64,000 nucleotides of DNA. Source: an uncultured Candidatus Rokubacteria bacterium. GTDB taxonomy: Bacteria > Methylomirabilota > Methylomirabilia > Rokubacteriales > CSP1-6. Positions 16,225 through 48,256 of the stretch are shown piece by piece (positions within the stretch are counted from its first letter, which is position 1; the number at the start of each line of letters is the position of its first letter). A model generated the notes under the pieces. The model made no database searches. It saw only the letters and a list, made by a program, of their open reading frames with translations, and was not told where the DNA came from. A program made the translations under genes and the position numbers. The stretch covers positions 29,689-93,688 of the forward strand of contig CAVVEU010000027.1 in the NCBI GenBank assembly GCA_963747235.1. The letters run 5' to 3'.

Positions 16225-18461
16225 TCAACGCGTCGCCACCACCCGGATCAGCGCGCCGTCGGATCGGGGCGGCGTGACCTCGCCGATGATCGCGGCGGCC
16301 CCGTCGCCGGCCGCCCGCACCGCGCTCAGCATCGCCGGGCCGCGCTCCCGGGGCACCGCGAGCAGCAGGCCGCCCGAGGTCTGGGGATCGAAGAGCAGGT
16401 CGAGCGCTGCCCGTCGCGCCGCGTCCGGCTCCACGAGCATCGCGCGCCGCGCGCGGGCGTTCTCGGGGTGCGCGGTGCTCCGGATGCCGCGGCCGAGCAG
16501 CGCCACCGCGCCGGGCAGGGCAGGGATCGTGGCGAGGTCGAGCACCGCCGAGGCCTTGCTCGCCGCGCAGCATCTCGCCCAGGTGCCCGGCCAGGCCGAA
16601 GCCGGTGACGTCGGTGGCGGCGGAGGGCCGCAGCGCGAGCATCGCGCGCGCGGCCGCGCCATTGGAGCGGAGCATCGAGGCGGCGGCCGCCTCCACCCAC
16701 TCGCCGCGCGCGAGGGCGCGCATGTCGGCCTGCAGGATGACGCCGGTGCCGAGTGGCTTGGTCAGGATGAGCTGGTCGCCGGGCGCGGCGCCGCCGATGC
16801 GGATCAGCGCATCGGCCGAGGCCGCGAAGCCCCAGACCGCGAAGCCCACCACCAGCTCGGGCCCCGTGGTGGTGTGGCCGCCCACGAGCGTGACGCCGTC
16901 GGCCTCGAGCGCGGCGCGGGCGCCCGCCATCACCTGGTAGAGCGTCTCCTCCGCGCGCGCCGGCTCGGCCTCGGGCACGCTCACCTGGGCCAGGGCGAAG
17001 CGCGGCGTCACGCCCTTGGCCCAGAGATCGCTGACCGCGTTGACCGCGGCGACGCGCCCGACCAGGTAGGGATCGTCGGCGAAGGCGCGGAAGGAGTCCA
17101 CCGTGGCCGCGACGATCTCGCCGCGCTCGGTCTCCACCGCCGCGGCGTCGTCGGGCTGGGCCAGGCCCAGGACGACGGCGGGATGGCTCGGGACGCCGAG
17201 GCGCTCGAGCGCGCGGGTCAGCGAGGATTCGCCCACCTTGGCCGCGCAGCCGCCGCAGAGCATGTCCCCGCCGGGCATCGGGCCGCCGCGAAGTCCGGCG
17301 TGACGGCGCCGTCCTGATCCAGCACCTGGAAGCGGCGCACGAAGCGGCGATCGATCCAGTCCTTGAGCGCGAATACCGCGCGGCCTTCGACCGAGGCGCC
17401 CCACTTGGTGCCGATCGCCCCGCCGTCCCCCAGGTTCAGCAGGGAGAGGAAGTCGACGCTGCGGGCGATACGCGCGGAGGCGCTCGCCGCGGATGCGCGC
17501 GATCAGGTTGTGCGCGAGCACCGGGCCCTGGCGGACCGCGTACACGCCGGCCTTGGCGAGGCCGGGGCCCGTCGGTCCACGCCGCGCAGTCGCCCACCGC
17601 GAAGACGTCGTCGTGCCCCACGCACTGCAGCGTCGGGCGGATCCGGACGAAGCCGCCCTCGTCGGTCTCGAGCCCGGAGCCGTCGAAGAGCGGCAGCGCG
17701 GCGGCGCCCGCCACCCAGACCACCGCGTCGGCGGGCAGCCGCTCGCCGCCTTCCAGGTGCACCGCGCCGGCCTCGACGCGCGTCACGCGCGTGCCCGTGC
17801 GGATCGCGATCCCGCGCGCCGCGGCCGCGGCCTGGACGCGGGCCGCCGCGCTCGCCGCGTAGCCCGGCAGCACGCGGGGGCCGGACTCGAGCAGGAGCAC
17901 CTCGACGCGCCCGGCGCGCTCACCGCGGAGCCGCGCCGCGAGCGCGAAGGCCACCTCGACGCCGCCCGCGCCCGCGCCGACCACGACGAGGCGCGCGGCG
18001 TCTCGGCCCCGCGCCGCGGCCAGCAGCTCGTCCACCCGGCGGACGAACTCGCCGATGGGGCGCGTGGGGATCGCGTGCTCGGCGACGCCGCGCAGCCCGA
18101 GCCCCGCCACCGTGGAGCCCACGTCGAAGGACACGGTGTCGTAGGCGATCGGCGGCCGGGCTTCCAGGACGAGGCGCCGTGCGGTGGTGTCGAGCCCGGT
18201 GGCCGGGGCGACGATGCAGCGGGCGCCCGCGCGCAGCGCCAGCGGCCGCACGTCGATCTCGAGGGCTTCCCGCGGGTACTGGCCGGCCACGAAGCCGGGC
18301 ACCATGCCGGAGTAGACCGCGACCGGCCGATCCACCACGAGGGTGAGGCGCGCCCCGGGGACGGGCGCCATGGCCCAGCGCTTGAGCACCTGGATGTGGG
18401 CGTGGCCGCCGCCCACGAGGACCAGGTCGTGCCGGATGGGAGCCGCGGACGGCGAGCGCAT
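16225..18461 (-). CDS. selD: FAD-dependent oxidoreductase - selenophosphate synthetase fusion (several frameshifts)
   Basis: N-terminal LVLVGGGHAH and GAGAGG; C-terminal CGGCAAKVG, DDAA, GGHT, LTKPLGTG, DVTGFGLAGHL, DPQTSGGLL. Confidence 0.9.
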
Positions 18462-18481
18462 GCCCGTCCGCGGTGGAGCCG

Positions 18482-20792
18482 TCAGTGCTTGCCGTTGACC
18501 AGGGACAGCGCGATGCGCTCCGGGCTCATCGGCAGCTCGGTCAGGCGCACCCCGGTCGCGTTCTGGATGGCGTTGGCGATCGCGGCGGGCGCCGGGATGA
18601 TGGGCGGCTCGCCGACGCCGCGGGCGCCGAAGGGACCGGCGGGCGCGGGCACCTCGACGATGATGGTCTCGAGATTGGGCAGGTCCGCCGCGGTCAGCTT
18701 GCGGTAGTCGAGCAGGCTCGGATTCGTGAGCCGCCCGACGTCGTCGAAGAGCAGCCCTTCCGTCAGCGCCATGCCGATGGACTGCACGGCCCCGCCCTGC
18801 ATCTGGCCCGCGACGCCCATCGGGTTGATCGCCTTGCCCACGTCCTGCACGACCACGAAGTCCAGCAGCGTCACCTCGCCGGTGTCCGGATCGAGCTCGA
18901 GCCGCGCGAGCTGGGCCGCGAAGCCGGGGGCCTGCTGGGTGAACGCCGGGTTGGCCTTGCCGAGCACCGGCGGCGTCTTCGACATGTAGAGGTTGCCCTT
19001 CTTGCCGATGGAGGCCAGCGTGATGCCCTTGCTCGGCGCGCCGCGCACCGTGACCTTGCCGTCCACCAGCTCGAGGTCGTGCACCGAGGCCTCGAGCTCC
19101 GCCGCCGCGATCTCGAACGTCTGCCGCCGCGCGTCTTCCGCCGCCTGCAGCACCGCGGCGCCGACCGTGTAGATGGTCTTGCTGCCCGCGCTCAGCCCGG
19201 TCATCGGGCGCCACGTCGGTGTCGCCGGTGGTGATGCGCACCAGGTCGGTGTCCACGCCGTAGGCGGACGCCGCGATCTGGGCCAGCGAGATGTTGGTGC
19301 CCGCGATGTCCACCTGGCCGGTGAGCACCGCGAGCGTGCCATCGGGATTCAGTCGGACCGTCGCGCCGGTGGGCTGGAGCCCGCCGAGCCAGCCGCCGAG
19401 GGCCAGGCCCACGCCGCGGCGCTTGCCGTTCTTGCTCCCGGTGATCCACTGCTTGCGGCTCTTCCAGTGCGGGTGCTCGGCGATGCGGGCGAGCACCTGC
19501 TTGGCCCCGTTGTTCTGCCAGGGCTGGCCGTTCACCATCGGATCGCCTTCCTGGATCAGGTGGCGCATCCGGAACTCGACCGAATCGAGATCGAGATCGC
19601 GGGCGATCTGCTCCATCTGCGACTCGATCGCGAAGATGGTCTGCGGCGCCACCGGCGCGCGGTAGGCGGCCACGCTCGGCTTGTGGGTCAGCACCTCGAA
19701 GCCGCGGATGTCGAACGACGGCCACTTGTACATGCTGCCGAGGAAGACCGCGCTCACCGCGAGCACCGCGCCGGAGTACGCGCCGGAGTCGATGACGGTC
19801 TCCGCGTCGAGGGCCATGAGGGTGCCGTCGCGCTTGACGCCGGTCTTGAGCTTGATGATGACCTGCGGGGCGGGCATGCCCGCCTGCAGCTCTTCCCGCC
19901 GCGTCATGACGTAGCGCACCGGGCGCTTGGTGACCTGCGCCAGCACCGCGGTGATCGGCTCGCAGAGCGCGCGGATCTTGCCGCCGAAGCCGCCGCCGCA
20001 CTCCACCGGGATGACCCGGATCGAGTTCTCGGGGATGCCGAGCACGTCGGCCACCTCGGAGCGCGTGTTGAACGAGCCCTGGGTGCTGGCCCAGAGCGTG
20101 AGCAGCCCGTTGCGGTCCCACTCGGCCAGGACCGCGTGCGGCTCGAGGTAGCCCTGGTGCACCATCGGCACGCGGTAGGTCTTCTCGAGGATGTGATCCG
20201 ACTCCGCGAAGCCCTTGGCCGGGTCGCCGCGCTGCAGCCGGGCCTGCTGCGAGATGTTCACCGCCTTCGCGGGCGTGTCGCTCTTGGCGATGGCCACCGC
20301 GGAGTGGGCGAGCGCCTCGCTGGTGTCGGCCTCGGTGCCCGCGTCGGCCACCGGCGGCGCGCCGGGCAGCATGGCCTTGAGCGGATCGATCGAGGCGGCC
20401 AGCACCTGGTACTCGACCTTGATGAGGTCGAGCGCTTCCTCGGCGATGGACGGCTCGTCCGCGGCCACCGCGGCCACCGGCTGGCCCATGAACACCACGC
20501 GGTCGATGGCGAGCACGGCGTGGGCGCGCGTCGGCGCCTTCTTCTTGAGATGCGGGATGTCCTTGGCGGTGATGACCGCGCGCACGCCGGGCAGCGCCTT
20601 GGCCGCGCTGGTGTCGATCGAGACGATCTTGGCGTGGGCGTGCGGGCTGCGCAGCAGCTTGGCGTGCAGCAGGCCCTTGGCCTGGATGTCGGCCACGTAC
20701 TGCACGCGGCCGGTGACCTTCTCGGGGCCGTCCGGCCGCGGAATCGAGATGCCGACTCCCTTGACGTCGCGCGTGGTCTTCATCGTGCTCAT
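18482..20792 (-). CDS. Xanthine dehydrogenase-family molybdopterin-binding subunit (frameshift near 19205)
   Basis: LRSPHAHA, GGGFGGK, AYRAP, GQMQGG, GARGVGEPP. Confidence 0.92.
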
Positions 20793-21280
20793 CGAGCGCT
20801 CCTCTGCGAGGCGAGGGTGCCCGCCGCCTCGCTGATCGCGGCCACCATCGCGGTGTAGCCGGTGCAGCGGCACAGGTTGCCGGCGATGCCGTAGCGGATC
20901 TCCTCCTCGGAGGGCCGCGGGTTCTCCTCGAGCAGCGCGGTCGCCGCCATCAGCACGCCCGGGATGCAGAAGCCGCACTGGGGCACGCCGTGCCGGACGA
21001 ACGCTTCCTGCAGCGGGTGCAGGGTGGTGTCCGCGGCCGCGAGGCCCTCGATGGTGCGGACCTTGCGGCCGCGCACCTGCATCGCCAGCATCAGGCAGCT
21101 CGCCACCACCTTGCCGTCCACGTGGACGGTGCAGGCGCCGCAGTCGCCGGTGCCGCAGCCTTCCTTGGGGCCGGTGAGCCCCAGGTTCTCGCGCAGGGCA
21201 TCGAGCAGGTTGACGTAGGGCTGGACGAGCACCTCGACGGCCTCGCCGTTCACGGTGCAGCTCAGGAGCTGTTTGGCCAC
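20789..21280 (-). CDS. Molybdenum hydroxylase 2Fe-2S subunit
   Basis: GCGTGDCGACT, QCGFC, GNLCRCTGY. Confidence 0.94.
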   Translation of the reverse strand: MAKQLLSCTVNGEAVEVLVQPYVNLLDALRENLGLTGPKEGCGTGDCGACTVHVDGKVVASCLMLAMQVRGRKVRTIEGLAAADTTLHPLQEAFVRHGVPQCGFCIPGVLMAATALLEENPRPSEEEIRYGIAGNLCRCTGYTAMVAAISEAAGTLASQRSAR

Positions 21281-44464: not shown

Positions 44465-45567
44465 TGGCCATCGAGTTCATCGGCATGATCGGAGTGCGGC
44501 CCGAAGGGGCCGACGGCGCCGCGGTGCACGTGATCGGCGGCGAGATCGACATGGCATGGGTCCGGGAGTTCTCCCAGGCCCACGAGCGCGCGGGCTTCGA
44601 CAAGGTGCTGGTGGGCTACACGTCCACCTCCGCGGACGGCTTCCTGGTCTCGGCCTATGCCGCGGCCCACACCGAGCGGCTCGGCTATCTGCTCGCCCAC
44701 CGCCCCGGCTTCGTCGCGCCCACGCTGGCCGCGCGCAAGGCGGCCACGCTCGATCAGCTCTCGGGCGGCCGGCTCGCGCTCCACATCATCACCGGCGGCA
44801 GCGACGCCGACCAGGCGCGCGACGGCGACTTCGTGGACCACGACACGCGCTACCGCCGCACCGACGAGTATCTCGGGCTGATGCGGCGCGTGTGGACGGA
44901 GGCGCGGCCCTTCGACCACGCCGGCGAGTTCTACCGGGTCACCGCGGCCTACTCGGACGTCAAGCCGGTGCAGCGGCCGCACGTGCCGCTCTACTTCGGC
45001 GGCGCCTCGGAGGCCGCGCACCGGATCGGCGTCCGCCACTGCGACGTCTACATGCTGTGGGGCGAGCCGCTCGCCGCGATCCGCGACCGCATCGCGACCG
45101 TGCGCGCGGCGGCGGCGGAGGCCGGCCGGGAGCCGGGCGCGCCGCGGTTCAGCGTGTCGCTGCGGCCGATCATCGCGCCCACCGAGGCGCAGGCCTGGGC
45201 CAAGGCGCGCACGATCCTGGAGCAGGTGCAGTCGAAGCAGGGCCAGCGCGCCGTCCCCCAGCCCGAGGCGGTGGGCGCCCGCCGCTTGGTGGACTTCGCC
45301 CAGCAGGCCGACGTGCACGACAAGCGGCTCTGGACGCCGATCGCGGCGGCCGTCGGCGGCCAGGGCAATACCACCGCGCTGGTGGGCACGCCCGAGCAGG
45401 TGGCCGAGGCGCTGCTCGATTACTACGATCTCGGCGTGACCACGCTGCTGATCCGCGGCTTCGACCCGCTCAACGACGCGATCGAGTACGGCCGCGAGCT
45501 CATCCCCCTGGTGAAGACCGAGGTCGCCCGCCGCGAGCGGGATCGCGCGGCGGCGCTCGCGCGGTGA
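44464..45567 (+). CDS. LLM-class flavin-dependent monooxygenase (SsuD-like)
   Basis: LAHRPG, ATLDQLSGGR, YFGGAS, LVGTPEQVA. Confidence 0.9.
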   Translation: MAIEFIGMIGVRPEGADGAAVHVIGGEIDMAWVREFSQAHERAGFDKVLVGYTSTSADGFLVSAYAAAHTERLGYLLAHRPGFVAPTLAARKAATLDQLSGGRLALHIITGGSDADQARDGDFVDHDTRYRRTDEYLGLMRRVWTEARPFDHAGEFYRVTAAYSDVKPVQRPHVPLYFGGASEAAHRIGVRHCDVYMLWGEPLAAIRDRIATVRAAAAEAGREPGAPRFSVSLRPIIAPTEAQAWAKARTILEQVQSKQGQRAVPQPEAVGARRLVDFAQQADVHDKRLWTPIAAAVGGQGNTTALVGTPEQVAEALLDYYDLGVTTLLIRGFDPLNDAIEYGRELIPLVKTEVARRERDRAAALAR

Positions 45568-46139
45568 CGCGGCTCCTGGCCGTGGTGGGCGCGGTGACGC
45601 CGCCGGGGCGCCTCGACGCGGCGGTGCGCTTCGCGGCCGACCGCGCGGCCGCCCGGCAGCGGGACGTCTCCGCCACCGTGCTGAGCCTGGGCGCGCATCG
45701 CGTCTCCTTCGCGGACGGGCGCCCGCTCGACCGCTACCCCGACGACACCGCGCGCGTCGTCGGCGCGATCGCCGAGGCCGACGCGGTGCTGCTCGCGAGC
45801 CCGGTCTACCGCGCCTCGTTCACCGGCGCGCTCAAGAACCTGCTCGATCTCACGCCGGTGGAGGCGCTGCGGGCCAAGCCGGTGGGCATCGTGGCGATGG
45901 GCGCGACGCTCCATCACTACCTGGGCGTGGACTGGCAGCTCCGCGCGGTGCTGGCCTGGTTCGGGGCGCTGGTGGTGCCGACCAGCGTGTACCTCGAGTC
46001 CGGCCACTTCCAGGACGGCAAGCTCGCCGATCCCGCCGCCCGCGCCGCTCTCGACGATCTCGTGGGTGCGCTCGTCGCGATGGCGGGCCACGCCCGGGAT
46101 CAGGCCGGCCCGCCCCCGCTGGCGGCGGGGCGCGGCTAG
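45564..46139 (+). CDS. NAD(P)H-dependent FMN reductase (SsuE-like)
   Basis: ASPVYRASFTGALKNLLD. Confidence 0.88.
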   Translation: MTRLLAVVGAVTPPGRLDAAVRFAADRAAARQRDVSATVLSLGAHRVSFADGRPLDRYPDDTARVVGAIAEADAVLLASPVYRASFTGALKNLLDLTPVEALRAKPVGIVAMGATLHHYLGVDWQLRAVLAWFGALVVPTSVYLESGHFQDGKLADPAARAALDDLVGALVAMAGHARDQAGPPPLAAGRG

Positions 46140-46217
46140 GTCCGAATCCTCATCGCGCGGTTTTCGCGCGCCAGTGTAAGCCTCGTTCGAGCGCCGCGCC
46201 GGCGCACCCGTCCGAGG

Positions 46218-46246
46218 TCGGAGGGGGCCGTCAAGGCCCCCTCCGA
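46218..46246. repeat. 12-bp perfect hairpin TCGGAGGGGGCC-GTCAA-GGCCCCCTCCGA
   Basis: Direct inspection; lies between convergent genes. Confidence 0.7.
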
Positions 46247-46249
46247 GAA

Positions 46250-46787
46250 CAAGGCCGCGGATGACGTCGCGCGCGGCGGCGCTCTTCCAGTCGCGGCCGC
46301 CGACGATCCGGCCGACCAGGCGCCCCTCGCGGTCCACCAGGTAGGCGGTGGGCGGCCCGAAGACGCCGTACACCCGCCCCGTGAGGTCGCCCGAGGCGTC
46401 GAGGAGCACCGGCGCGGTGTAGCCGCGCTCGGCGACGGTCCGCTTCACGACGTCGCTACTCTCGCGAAAGCTGATCAACAAGACCTCGAGCCCCTGCCCC
46501 TTGAATTCCTCGTACAGCCGATTGACGGAAGGTAACTCCTCCCGGCAGGTCGTTCACCAGGTGGCCCAGAAGAAGAGCAGCAGCGCCTTGCCCTTCTGGT
46601 CTTCGAGCCGCACCGTGCGGCCGTCGAGCGCGGGCAGGGCGAAGGCGGGCGCCGGCCTGGGCGACTCGTAGGCCTGCACGCCCATCTTCTCCCAGGCCGG
46701 CGGCGCGGCGGCGGGTTGCGCCGCCGCGGCCCCGGCCCAGAGCGCCGCCGCGATCAGGATGGACGCGGCGAGCGGGCGTCTACTCAC
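46250..46787 (-). CDS. Exported TlpA/ResA-like disulfide reductase, putative selenoprotein (UxxC); 3' end unresolved
   Basis: APAFALPALDG..LFFWATW-TGA(46556-46554)-TTCREELPSV.., continuing in frame to PTAYLVDREG; SECIS-like stem. Confidence 0.88.
46527..46543 (-). promoter_or_regulatory. Candidate bacterial SECIS element
   Basis: GGGAGG-AGTTA-CCTTCC hairpin; 16 nt lie between the UGA and the loop, with G at loop position 2. Confidence 0.6.
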
Positions 46788-47344
46788 GCGCCCGAGTCCT
46801 TGAGCGCCTTCAGCACTTCCGCGGGATCCAGCAGGTCGAGCGCGTTGTCCTGGATCTTCATGTACCGGACCACGCCGTTCTTGTCGATCACGTAGTAGGC
46901 GCGCTTGGCGTAGCGGAAGATCGGGCTCTTGTCGTCGGTGACCAGCGCGTCGTACCCGGGCAGCATCGCGCGGCGGAAGTCGGACAGGAGGGGGTAGCTG
47001 ATCTTGTTCTGCTTGGTGAAGGCGTCCAGCGTGGCTGCGTGGTCGGCGCTCACTCCGATGACCTGGGCGCCGGCGGCCGTGAACTGGGGTAGGGTCTCCT
47101 CGAAACCGAGGAGCTCCTTGGTTCAGGTACTGGTGAATGCCTGGATGAAGGTGAAGACGACGACGGGGCCCTTGGCGGTCAGGTCGGACAGCTTCACGGG
47201 CTTGCCGCCGGGGCCGGGCAGGGTGAAATCGGGCGCTTTCTGGCCGACTTCCAGGGCCGTGGCGGGTCCGGCCGAGCCGAGACCGGCGGCGACCAGGCCG
47301 GCCAGCAGCAGGGCCGCGACCAGGAGCGGGGTCATTCGACGCAT
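46784..47344 (-). CDS. Exported peroxiredoxin (AhpE/BCP-like), putative selenoprotein (TxxU)
   Basis: VGQKAPDFTL..AFTST-TGA(47125-47123)-TKEL.., continuing in frame to GVSAD, LLSDF, KRAYYVIDKNG; SECIS-like stem. Confidence 0.9.
47096..47113 (-). promoter_or_regulatory. Candidate bacterial SECIS element
   Basis: CTCCTCG-GTTT-CGAGGAG hairpin; 16 nt lie between the UGA and a loop that starts with G. Confidence 0.7.
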
Positions 47345-47431
47345 GGCGTTCTCCTTTCCAGGGTGAGAGGTGACGCCCACACAACGGGCGGTGGGCTCCC
47401 GAAGTTTCCGGGCCACGCGCATAATGCTCGC

Positions 47432-48256
47432 ATGGATCGGATGATCGCTGGCGAGCCTATCGTCGCGAGCGGCATGGCCTGGACGATACACCGGGAGCGG
47501 GTGCTCCTGGCCGGCTGGGGCCGGGCCATCCTGCTCCAGATCGCCCACCCGAAGGTGGCGCGCGGGGTGGCCGAGCACAGCGGGTTCACGGCCGATCGCT
47601 GGGGGCGGCTCCGGCGCCTGCACCGGACGCTGTCCGCCATGCTCGCCCTGACCTTCGGCTCGGAGGTGGAGGCCGCGGGCTCGGCCGCGCGGATCAATGC
47701 CATCCACGACCGCGTCCACGGCCGGCTCGGGGAGCCGGAGGGGGGCGCGTCCTACAGCGCCCACGATCCGGAGCTGCTCACCTGGGTGCACGCCACCCTG
47801 ATCGAGTCGTTCCTGCTGACGTACCGCCTCTTCGTGGCGCCGGTCACGACCGAGGAAGCCGATCGGTACTGCGCAGAGGCCGGCGGCATCGAGGCGGCGC
47901 TCGGAATCCCGCCGGGCCGGTTGCCGCGCAGGGAGCGCGACCTCCGCGAGTACCTGGACGCGATGCTCGCGGGCGGCTCGATCGAGGTGACCGACACCGC
48001 CCGGCGGCTCTCGCGCGAGATCATCAGGCCGCCGGCGCCGGCGCTCGTCCGGCCCGCCCTCTGGCTGGCCGCGCTGCCGGCCATCGGCCTCCTGCCTCCC
48101 GCGATCCGCGAGGCCTACGGGTTTCCCTGGAATGACCGCCGGGCGCGGGCGCTGCGCGTCCTGGCCGCCGTGACGCGCAGCGGTCTCCCGCTGGCGCCGC
48201 CGGCCCTTCGTTACTGGGCGCGGGCGCGGCGCGCGGAGCGACGGGCGCGCCGGTGA
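47432..48256 (+). CDS. Oxygenase MpaB/DUF2236 family protein
   Basis: RAILLQIAHPKVA, INAIHDRV, DPELLTWVHATL. Confidence 0.85.
   Translation: MDRMIAGEPIVASGMAWTIHRERVLLAGWGRAILLQIAHPKVARGVAEHSGFTADRWGRLRRLHRTLSAMLALTFGSEVEAAGSAARINAIHDRVHGRLGEPEGGASYSAHDPELLTWVHATLIESFLLTYRLFVAPVTTEEADRYCAEAGGIEAALGIPPGRLPRRERDLREYLDAMLAGGSIEVTDTARRLSREIIRPPAPALVRPALWLAALPAIGLLPPAIREAYGFPWNDRRARALRVLAAVTRSGLPLAPPALRYWARARRAERRARR

Follow-up and report, generated by a model that had tools for sequence, protein, structure and literature searches.

A predicted selenoprotein gene pair in a soil Rokubacteria bacterium: a Cys-free peroxiredoxin and its TlpA-like neighbour

Analysis of a 64,000 nucleotide stretch of the genome of an uncultured Rokubacteria bacterium (here called the window) revealed a real gene of a kind that is routinely mis-annotated. 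Its predicted product is a secreted peroxiredoxin in which selenocysteine (Sec, U) would be the sole redox-active residue. Together with the gene that follows it, it very probably forms a two-gene selenoprotein operon of this soil Rokubacteria/Methylomirabilota bacterium, coding for a Cys-free, 1-Sec envelope peroxiredoxin (Prx) and a TlpA-like reductant with a UxxC motif. A preliminary description of the region had recognized the Prx gene but missed the adjoining TlpA-like UxxC selenoprotein gene (46787..~46231). The features of the first gene are the following:

47351..47359, minus strand: Shine-Dalgarno-like sequence GGAAAGGAG, 6 nt upstream of the Prx ATG, putative function
46784..47344, minus strand: AhpC/TSA peroxiredoxin gene, 186 codons plus a TGA stop, predicted Sec at codon 74
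47255..47344, minus strand: predicted signal-peptide-like N-terminus of Prx (MRR, a hydrophobic run and A-T-A ahead of LEVGQ)
47123..47125, minus strand: in-frame TGA, candidate U74 of a TxxU motif, at the peroxidatic position
47096..47113, minus strand: candidate SECIS element of Prx, with a perfect 7-bp stem and a GUUU loop

The Prx frame (47344..46784, minus strand) ends at the TGA at 46786-46784. As had been described, ORF calling under Table 11 splits it at the TGA at 47125-47123 and reports two ORFs, 47123..47791 and 46784..47053. The 186-residue read-through protein contains no Cys at all, in agreement with the earlier proposal that Sec would be its only redox-active residue, and the mature protein was likewise free of Cys in 30 of 30 fetched loci and in 79 of 79 loci of a wider set. 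Export of the protein is suggested by its signal-peptide-like N-terminus, which is conserved in the orthologs, as is the ALEVGQKAPDF junction that follows this segment.

The read-through product matched PF00578 (AhpC-TSA) with an E value of 9.7e-32 and 110 bits (cut-off 26), residues 33-162 covering positions 1-124 of the 124 in the profile, that is, the full model length. An AF2 model of the mature protein reached a pLDDT of 91.7 and placed mature U44 (= U74) at the start of helix 42-60. The best structural matches found by Foldseek were Bcp4 3hjp (TM 0.85), PrxQ 4gqf/2cx3 and AhpE 1xxu, the closest solved folds (BCP/PrxQ and AhpE) spanning TM values of 0.80-0.85, and the closest solved relatives by sequence were also BCP/PrxQ proteins (E 6e-26 to 1e-22, 25-37% identity). 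In the alignments with BCP/PrxQ 2ywn and 2cx3 the Prx TGA codon falls on the peroxidatic Cys, the position that the preliminary description had assigned to it. The catalytic Arg, R148 (mature R118), is invariant across 32 aligned sequences; its counterpart in the same two structures is the Arg-containing KRA motif. A search of NCBIfam returned no family above cut-off for either Prx or the TlpA-like protein; the families closest to Prx, below membership, are BCP (NF006960, 55.3 bits, cut-off 140) and PrxQ (NF053650, 46.8 bits, cut-off 260).

Concerning the PxxxTxxC motif, Thr71 and U74 are present in the window Prx and Ile67 stands in place of Pro, as previously noted, so that the motif is incomplete; one of the two alignments (2ywn, 2cx3) shows a one-residue gap opposite the Pro instead. 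This Pro is missing in all 30 orthologs, which read FIQAF at the site. The Thr at -3 is replaced by Ala in 3 of the 30 loci, by Ala, Gly, Ser or Asn in 9 of the 79, and by Asn in a Cys-form paralog (G245). With the motif Pro absent throughout the family and the -3 Thr replaced in part of it, the chemistry of a peroxidase cannot be taken for granted.

The Prx TGA occupies the identical codon in all 30 fetched orthologous loci, and a pattern search recovered it in 79 of 79 loci. Matches from 61 related genomes showed exactly one TGA in 60 of 61 rows, the exception being a partial match over residues 82-186 only. A search of 251 genomes of the phylum gave a Prx match in 149 of them; of the match rows, 150 were listed and 26 more were not, and among those listed 149 of 150 carry the TGA and the sole row lacking it has Cys at that position. 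In locus L113, tblastn also placed a stop at the aligned Prx position. The coding sequence is conserved on both sides of the TGA, with identities going down to 57%. The pairing of U with Cys anticipated in the preliminary description was observed in two database homologs (P0008 and P0024) and in the paralog G245:C79, a Cys-form Prx that retains a Sec TlpA-like neighbour. In 13 longer database homologs the U column contains W (6), C (2), G (2), R (1), L (1) and a gap (1). Another candidate Cys form, G039:C38, was rejected, as it joins an unrelated N-terminus to no more than the C-terminal portion of a Prx. The majority of the database relatives are themselves fragments: C-terminal pieces of 102-113 residues starting just past the TGA account for 107 of the best 120 listed, so an abundant family of soil-bacterial enzymes is effectively missing from the protein catalogues.

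The genome encodes the machinery for Sec insertion, a point that the preliminary description had proposed to check. We found selA (578 bits, cut-off 268), selB (365 bits, cut-off 242) and, on another contig, a tRNA-Sec (69.3 bits, cut-off 47; anticodon TCA according to ARAGORN), as well as selD (228 bits, cut-off 125); within the window, ARAGORN located no tRNA. The assembly has a frame change in selD near 16560-16575, a further selD-like locus spread over three frames, and a 1-nt deletion in the TlpA-like gene. These could be either assembly indel errors or real defects. Concerning the two in-frame TGA codons, contigs from three DNA runs and one RNA-library run span both of them, and none of the differences listed against the contigs of independent assemblies lies on either TGA codon. 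Another 50 differences fall outside the listing, which leaves the absence of a variant at the TGA short of proof. The RNA-library contig, from run X15, covers 46524-47353 and comes from a relative that is about 94% identical. It was not counted as proof of transcription because it may stem from DNA in the library and has the sequence of the relative. Five further RNA runs (X16-X20) covered small shares of the stretch and were uninformative.

The hairpin reported after the Prx TGA was recovered exactly, with its arms CTCCTCG (47113-47107) and CGAGGAG (47102-47096) enclosing the loop GTTT (47106-47103), all on the minus strand. It starts 9 nt after the TGA and its G-initiated loop starts 16 nt after it. 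As a measure of the chance level, the 64 kb window contains 114 perfect 7-bp hairpins with loops of 3-8 nt per strand, and 9 of the 682 minus-strand TGA triplets (about 1.3%) have such a hairpin starting 6-14 nt downstream. The 71-nt fold after the Prx TGA gave a z value of -1.59, with 12 of 200 shuffles folding equally well. Given this chance frequency and the shuffle result, the hairpin alone is suggestive and not decisive. All seven of its pairs are kept in 9 of the 30 loci and in 8 of the 79, all of them the closest relatives; no pair is changed on both sides, and the same bases double as codons for the conserved residues LLGFEE. The more distant Prx orthologs carry a different, longer hairpin with modest covariation (3 pairs changed on both sides) and apical loops (CAU, CCU, GCU) without G. 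An apical G is the rule for bacterial SECIS elements, and the loops of the long hairpin do not fit this rule as they lack it. Conservation in close homologs, which the preliminary description had named as a test, held for the TGA and, in the nearest clade only, for the short hairpin. An Rfam search of positions 46000-47500 at a permissive threshold yielded three chance-level matches and no SECIS family.

The second gene and its surroundings comprise the following features:

46231..46787 (3' end approximate), minus strand: TlpA/ResA-like thiol:disulfide oxidoreductase gene, motif FWATW-U-TTC
46554..46556, minus strand: in-frame TGA, candidate U78 in the UxxC of the TlpA-like gene
46518..46553, minus strand: candidate SECIS element of the TlpA-like gene (CGGGAGG, AGUUA loop, CCUUCCG, plus a lower stem)
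46220..46244, minus strand: GC-rich hairpin (GGAGGGGGCC, TTGAC, GGCCCCCTCC) at the operon end, between convergent genes

The GTG start of the TlpA-like gene (46787-46785) overlaps the Prx stop in a GTGA sequence. In 30 of 30 loci, and in 72 of the 79, Prx is directly followed by a TlpA-like gene with the W-U-x-x-C motif, whose start overlaps or adjoins the Prx stop; the same two counts apply to the in-frame TGA of the TlpA-like gene. Since the genes flanking the pair differ among 10 loci, Prx and the TlpA-like gene are the conserved unit. The U of the TlpA-like protein aligns with the first Cys of CxxC in 3kcm and in ResA 4nmu; the protein matches TlpA 1jfu with an E value of 1.4e-16 and scores 99.9 bits against the NCBIfam ResA model, under its 170-bit cut-off. 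The loop of its candidate SECIS begins 16 nt after the UGA. Over 23 distinct sequences, 93.3% of the cells in this hairpin are paired, as against 30-57% when the partner strand is slid. The homologous stop of the TlpA-like gene, the TGA at 46233-46231, lies inside the loop of the 46220..46244 hairpin; in this assembly it is out of frame because of the 1-nt deletion near 46246. A consensus scan of positions 46100-47550 for sigma-70 promoters and intrinsic terminators gave no match, other promoter types lying outside the scan, and the hairpin at the operon end was not flagged because it has no T-run.

By analogy with the TlpA-to-PprX path of Caulobacter, the most likely function of the two proteins is that of a peroxide-reduction pair of the cell envelope, a selenium version of that path. 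The first gene would encode a BCP/PrxQ-like peroxiredoxin whose signal peptide looks cleavable, and SelB and tRNA-Sec would insert Sec at the UGA at 47125-47123, guided by the hairpin just downstream. As the mature protein contains no Cys, it would work as a '1-Sec' peroxiredoxin, its selenolate reducing peroxide and being converted to a selenenic acid. The second selenoprotein probably recharges it. This TlpA/ResA-like oxidoreductase with a UxxC motif, which may be exported or membrane-anchored, is likely the reductant of Prx, encoded by a presumably co-transcribed gene whose translation would be coupled to that of the first through the GTGA overlap. Through its exposed Sec it would attack the oxidised Prx, linking the two proteins by a transient Se-Se bond. 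The Cys of the UxxC motif would then resolve this bond, leaving an internal selenenylsulfide that would be re-reduced by a membrane electron transporter of the DsbD/CcdA type. DsbD_TM proteins are encoded at two loci in the genome; in the window, as in 10 loci, the genes adjoining the Prx-TlpA pair include no DsbD/CcdA gene.

A bolder version of this scheme, which we put forward tentatively, is that of an obligate all-selenium envelope relay that would be a standard antioxidant module of soil Rokubacteria/Methylomirabilota. The Cys-free 1-Sec Prx would be recycled by the Sec of its UxxC partner through an inter-protein diselenide, the Prx SECIS would have been replaced by a structurally different one between clades while the UGA position stayed fixed, and public annotation would conceal nearly all copies of the cassette behind truncated 'redoxin' fragments. 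We know of no peroxidase system for which an inter-protein diselenide has been described as a catalytic intermediate.

A genuine Sec protein with a Prx fold could, on the other hand, be something else than a peroxide scavenger and, with its TlpA-like partner, act as a reductant of another target in the envelope, for example sulfenic acids or disulfides of proteins, metals or metalloids, or an intermediate in the assembly of cytochromes or Cu centres. The family-wide loss of the motif Pro, the variable -3 Thr and the scores under cut-off with the NCBIfam Prx models (BCP 55/140, PrxQ 47/260 and PrxU 29.5/270 bits) agree with such a role. So do two points in the available passages of PMC3322552, namely that the Prx-like envelope protein PrxL has no detectable peroxidase activity and that TlpA-family proteins are otherwise known from the maturation of cytochrome oxidase. 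However, the window Prx and most of its orthologs have the -3 Thr, the catalytic Arg does not vary, and true peroxiredoxins make up all of the nearest solved structures, whether ranked by sequence or by fold. We therefore regard a substrate other than peroxide as unlikely and retain peroxide reduction as the preferred function.

Doubts may also be raised about the TGA itself. That it is a plain stop, in a pseudogene or between two small ORFs, or a sequencing error for TGC or TGT, would account for the splitting of the frame under Table 11 and for the public gene calls, which consist of the C-terminal piece in 107 of the best 120 listed, and there are indel problems elsewhere in the assembly. 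Yet all 30 loci and 149 of the 150 rows listed carry the TGA at one and the same codon, amid flanking coding sequence conserved down to 57% identity; the Prx fold spans it, the contigs of four independent runs show no difference there among those listed, and the Sec machinery of the genome is complete. This explanation is strongly disfavoured and hardly credible. Decoding of the Prx TGA as Trp, Gly or Cys, through an altered code or near-cognate read-through, is only slightly less improbable. Some database translations do show W or G at the site, which probably reflects gene calling with tables 4 or 25; those with W are probably artefacts, since the same calls also run through the terminal TGA into unrelated tails. 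Against a recoded TGA, this triplet is the terminal stop of Prx in all 30 loci and of several TlpA-like genes, and tRNA-Sec, selA and selB are all found in the genome. In addition, the window has a G+C content of 71.6% and, to our knowledge, the lineages that recode TGA are not of such high G+C. Sec remains the preferred reading of U74.

The pair thus adds a new member to Sec Prx and Prx-like families that are already known; what is newer is the conserved association of two selenoproteins. Given the fragmentary gene calls, ordinary pipelines under-count the use of selenium by Rokubacteria/Methylomirabilota. As predicted from its sequence, this would be a naturally occurring peroxiredoxin that relies on selenium as sole redox centre and is genetically coupled to a Sec reductant, which makes the Prx-TlpA pair a clean system for asking what is gained by Sec in place of Cys in a compartment with oxidising conditions; the paralog G245 in its Cys form, with its Sec partner, offers a natural comparison of the two residues. 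The fixed UGA with two alternative hairpins is, moreover, a small test case for the turnover of protein-coding bacterial SECIS elements.

Among known proteins, the window Prx resembles PrxU, reportedly described by Sohling et al. in 2001 as the selenocysteine-containing peroxiredoxin of Eubacterium acidaminophilum, in having Sec at the peroxidatic position. PrxU is cytoplasmic and comes from an anaerobic Firmicute, whereas the window Prx has a predicted signal-peptide-like N-terminus, and with 29.5 bits against the 270-bit cut-off of NF040737 it does not belong to the PrxU family. Neither does it approach the recently named Sec-containing thiol peroxidase family (31.5 bits, cut-off 298), whose CxxU motif is absent here because the protein has no Cys. 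Mycobacterial AhpE (1xxu), a 1-Cys enzyme, shares with it the single redox residue. Unlike the window Prx, however, AhpE and the archaeal BCP/PrxQ proteins (2ywn/4g2e, 2cx3/4gqf and 3hjp) are cytoplasmic Cys enzymes with the canonical Pro.

Two Sec families known from metagenomes, Prx (PF00578, TxxU) and Prx-like 1 or Prx-like thiol:disulfide oxidoreductase (PF00578, UxxC), are described in the available passages of PMC2398784 and PMC13188914 and share their Pfam family and motifs with the first (TxxU) and second (UxxC) genes of the window, respectively. Like the window pair, these redox proteins have a thioredoxin fold and numerous Cys homologs and were predicted from U/C pairing and SECIS elements. 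According to the same passages, the metagenomic Prx families were defined mainly from marine reads, unlike the family described here. As for neighbouring selenoproteins, these passages mention one Prx/Prx-like 2 pair and a few others, and they contain no conserved Prx(U)-TlpA(U) operon. PxxxTxxU is called a highly conserved Prx motif in the passages of PMC13188914, and the window family differs from the metagenomic Prx family presented there in lacking its Pro. The same source credits Deng et al. with a Methylomirabilota MAG containing 63 selenoproteins; judging by titles and listings, we found no literature treating selenocysteine in Rokubacteria.

A functional parallel is provided by Caulobacter crescentus, in which, according to the available part of PMC3322552, electrons pass from ScsB, a membrane protein of the DsbD family, to TlpA and then to PprX, an exported PrxQ-type peroxiredoxin. 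The Caulobacter path is composed entirely of cysteine proteins, and PprX has both PxxxTxxC and a resolving Cys; in contrast, the window Prx and its TlpA-like partner carry predicted Sec, and Prx has no resolving residue. The window genes overlap, whereas in that part of PMC3322552 the Caulobacter genes are not described as an overlapping pair. Yet the path proposed for the window follows the same logic, with a putatively exported BCP/PrxQ-type peroxiredoxin, a probable TlpA-type reductant and a presumed donor of the DsbD family.

Under genetic code table 11 the Prx frame falls into two ORF pieces because of its internal TGA, as the preliminary description had pointed out, and a second putative selenoprotein gene, absent from that description, was identified at 46231-46787 on the minus strand. 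The features discussed here are the following:

47363-48256, plus: divergent neighbour, MpaB/Lcp-type oxygenase gene (MpaB name from a Pfam match on the ortholog locus L035)
47344, minus: ATG of the Prx gene, preceded by GGAAAGGAG
47125-47123, minus: internal TGA of the Prx gene, the sole interruption of the frame
46786-46784, minus: TGA ending the Prx frame, read from the sequence
46787-46784, minus: GTG start of the TlpA-like gene overlapping the Prx stop (GTGA), from the sequence
46556-46554, minus: internal TGA of the TlpA-like gene, aligned to the first Cys of CxxC
46233-46231, minus: TGA homologous to the stop of related TlpA-like genes, looped out by a GC-rich hairpin and out of frame
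44556-46139, plus: convergent neighbours, luciferase-like monooxygenase (Pfam on L035) and FMN-reductase-like (translation reading only) genes
about 16345-17257, minus: selD, within the window, 228 bits

The internal TGA had been placed at the peroxidatic Cys of a cysteine-free peroxiredoxin with Ile instead of the usual Pro, and all of this was borne out. The 186-residue read-through product lacks cysteine and matches PF00578 over profile positions 1-124 of 124 (110 bits, cut-off 26), the TGA coincides exactly with the peroxidatic Cys in alignments with solved BCP/PrxQ peroxiredoxins (aftqvCtke, afspvCtke), Ile occupies the canonical Pro position and the conserved catalytic Arg is found in KRAYYVID. 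An AlphaFold model of the mature protein (32-sequence alignment, pLDDT 91.7) shows a Prx fold with U at the beginning of a long helix; structurally it is closest to Sulfolobus Bcp4 (TM 0.85), to PrxQ of Aeropyrum and to AhpE of M. tuberculosis, the last a 1-Cys enzyme. None of the NCBIfam peroxiredoxin models reached its cut-off (BCP 55 of 140 bits, PrxU 29.5 of 270, Prx-SUH 31.5 of 298), which sets the protein apart as its own branch among BCP/PrxQ-like proteins. Since the mature part is Cys-free in 30/30 orthologs and the three Cys forms, as read from their sequences, carry a single Cys apiece in that part, the family is predicted to be of the one-redox-residue type and to need an external reductant.

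The strongest argument for reading the Prx TGA as Sec is its conservation. Matches at E <= 1e-20 were found in 50 of 61 related genomes, and 60 of the 61 match rows contain exactly one internal TGA, the exception being a partial match restricted to residues 82-186. Across the phylum, 149 of 251 genomes gave a match at E <= 1e-30, with one TGA in 149 of 150 rows among the matches listed (26 more rows lie beyond these); these tallies include the unpublished genomes G029, G135 and G243, with one TGA-bearing row each, and leaving these out gives matches in 146 of 248 genomes. The TGA occupies the identical codon in all 30 fetched loci. A scan of named species-representative genomes added 80 loci, not independent because they come largely from the same genomes: all 79 pattern-located loci have TGA there, and the 80th (L113) has a stop at the aligned position by tblastn. 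The proposed pairing of U with Cys was also seen, as Cys stands opposite the TGA in two database homologs (P0008 and P0024) and in contig C79 of genome G245 (..NKTC..), the only stop-free row among the phylum matches listed. At this last locus (L058, G245:C79:21400-23400) the Cys-form paralog (..LDAANKTC..) is followed by a TlpA-like gene with a TGA in W-U-PDC, and the same genome has two Sec-form Prx matches. Another locus (L059, G039:C38:32800-34800) retains just the C-terminal two-fifths of Prx (82-186), joined in frame to unrelated N-terminal sequence by either a rearrangement or a chimeric contig.

The genome of the window holds selA, selB and tRNA-Sec, which had been named as a check on the Sec reading, and also selD. 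The tRNA-Sec (69.3 bits, cut-off 47; ARAGORN anticodon TCA) is adjoined on contig C14 by selB (365 bits) and selA (578 bits), the three being grouped on one strand at G000:C14:40679-45481 (loci L001, L009, L017). A recoded genetic code, in which TGA would be a sense codon, is argued against because TGA is also a plain stop within the same operon, terminating the Prx gene in 30/30 cases. In contigs covering the site, assembled from DNA of three soil/peat runs and from one rhizosphere RNA-library run, no change falls at 47123-47125 or at the TlpA-like TGA (46554-46556) among the differences listed, 50 more lying beyond those. We consider it highly probable that Prx is a genuine selenoprotein gene.

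The hairpin described 3' of the Prx UGA is present, with arms at 47113-47107 and 47102-47096 and a GUUU loop beginning 16 nt after the UGA. Taken alone it is only mildly unusual: such a hairpin follows about 1.3% of TGA triplets in the window (9/682, minus strand; 71.6% G+C), and local folding gives z = -1.59. Its expected conservation among orthologs held for the nearest relatives (9/30 and 8/79 loci), but the short form is confined to these and shows no compensatory changes. In the remaining 21 of 30 loci the hairpin is longer and begins 6 nt further from the UGA, with the layout GGCUUCGAG, GGGGC, loop, GCCCC, AG, UUCGAGGCC. Its cells are 81.4% paired over the entire set, versus 31-54% when slid, and 50 of 79 loci have 12 or more of the 14 pairs. 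Two-sided changes occur at three pairs (G-C to A-U, 19/51; G-C to C-G, 29/39; one more, 31/37), in a number of cells reached by only 2 of 500 shuffles. Each of the hairpins lies on conserved codons (LLGFEE; GFE..FEA), so protein and RNA constraint are not cleanly separable. Bacterial SECIS models call for an apical G and a spacing of 16-37 nt, and the long-form apical loops lack G. In view of the codon overlap and these loops, we grade a SECIS in the Prx gene as likely, with the long hairpin as a candidate form in the more distant clades.

The TlpA-like product has a hydrophobic N-terminus, a TlpA/ResA-type thioredoxin fold and the motif FWATW-TGA-TTC, the TGA corresponding to the first CxxC Cys of 3kcm (E 8e-29), ResA 4nmu and TlpA 1jfu. 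A TGA-bearing copy directly follows Prx in 30/30 loci, with GTGA, ATGA or TGATG junctions, and one also follows in 72 of 79 loci; no W-U-x-x-C TlpA-like gene was found within 900 nt downstream of Prx in L124, L126, L129, L132, L134, L138 and L139, mostly of the FIAAFTPT-U subgroup. After its UGA comes a hairpin (CGGGAGG, AGUUR loop, CCUUCCG and a lower stem) whose loop begins 16 nt from the UGA; 93.3% of cells are paired (23 distinct sequences) versus 30-57% in slid controls, with one pair changing from G-U to A-U or G-C and a second from G-C to A-U. Since the flanking genes vary among 10 loci (among them luciferase-like monooxygenase, MpaB, amidohydrolase, GSDH, cytochrome c and ECF sigma), the conserved unit is the two-gene Prx-TlpA cassette. 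In a distant locus (L054:6-1006, minus) the pair is closely preceded by ECF sigma and zf-HC2 anti-sigma genes, which are on the other strand. Eight close relatives, 74-93% identical (L061, L062, L066, L068, L070, L075, L093, L107), are titled with unrelated taxa (Nitrosotalea, Nitrosocosmicus, Verrucomicrobiia, Limnocylindria, Dormiibacterota, Acidoferrum, Deferrimicrobiaceae), probably wrongly, because most other titles are Rokubacteria or Methylomirabilota.

Some frames are irregular. Compared with the close orthologs L027 and L028, the TlpA-like gene is one base short near 46246, seven codons from its end, so that the homologous stop is out of frame and the frame continues hundreds of codons further; selD changes frame near 16560-16575; and a second selD-like locus (G000:C8:303114-303868; L019, L020, L023) matched the model in three separate frames. 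These look like assembly indel errors but could be real, and the TGA evidence is unaffected because many genomes underlie it.

Directly visible in the genomes are two translationally coupled genes with signal-peptide-like N-termini, conserved UGA at redox-active positions and the Sec machinery. Most likely, Prx is a peroxiredoxin of the 1-Sec type in the envelope, and the neighbouring Sec-containing TlpA-like protein recycles it; we hold the full relay to be moderately probable. The Prx selenolate would reduce peroxide and become a selenenic acid, which the exposed N-terminal residue of UxxC would attack to form an inter-protein Se-Se bond; the UxxC Cys would then resolve this bond into an internal selenenylsulfide. 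These steps are modelled on the reactions established for peroxiredoxins and for thioredoxin-fold proteins with CxxC. A DsbD/CcdA-type protein would finally re-supply electrons to the TlpA-like protein; the genome has two DsbD_TM loci, neither next to the pair. A Prx-fold protein with a non-peroxidase role is kept as a rival, mainly because the Pro of PxxxTxxC is missing throughout the family and the -3 Thr, kept in the window's Prx, is variable (Ala in 3/30 loci; Ala 4, Gly 2, Ser 2 and Asn 1 in the 79-locus set).

The proposed relay has a counterpart in Caulobacter, where the exported PrxQ-type PprX is reduced by TlpA and the DsbD-family ScsB feeds TlpA (PMC3322552). The selD of the window has a CGGC motif, and the pyridine-nucleotide-disulfide-oxidoreductase-like region immediately upstream (17436-20978) makes the arrangement resemble the Ndh-SelD fusions described in PMC2398784. 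Of the 120 best matches in public protein collections, 107 are stumps of 102-113 residues starting past the TGA, and six longer calls have W at both TGAs, which we infer to be read-through under another code table. The portions consulted of PMC2398784 and of the 2026 review PMC13188914 contain no description of a phylum-wide coupled Cys-free Sec-Prx and Sec-TlpA, of a Pro-less Sec-Prx motif or of a clade-specific Prx hairpin replacement. In GOS data 253 Sec 'Prx' (PF00578, TxxU) and 225 'Prx-like' (UxxC) sequences were counted, which puts both with the most numerous selenoproteins predicted in bacteria (PMC2398784); the review lists both families and reports a Methylomirabilota MAG predicted to have 63 selenoprotein genes (PMC13188914). 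As these TxxU and UxxC proteins are already described, the predicted Prx selenoprotein is an addition to known Sec-containing Prx families.
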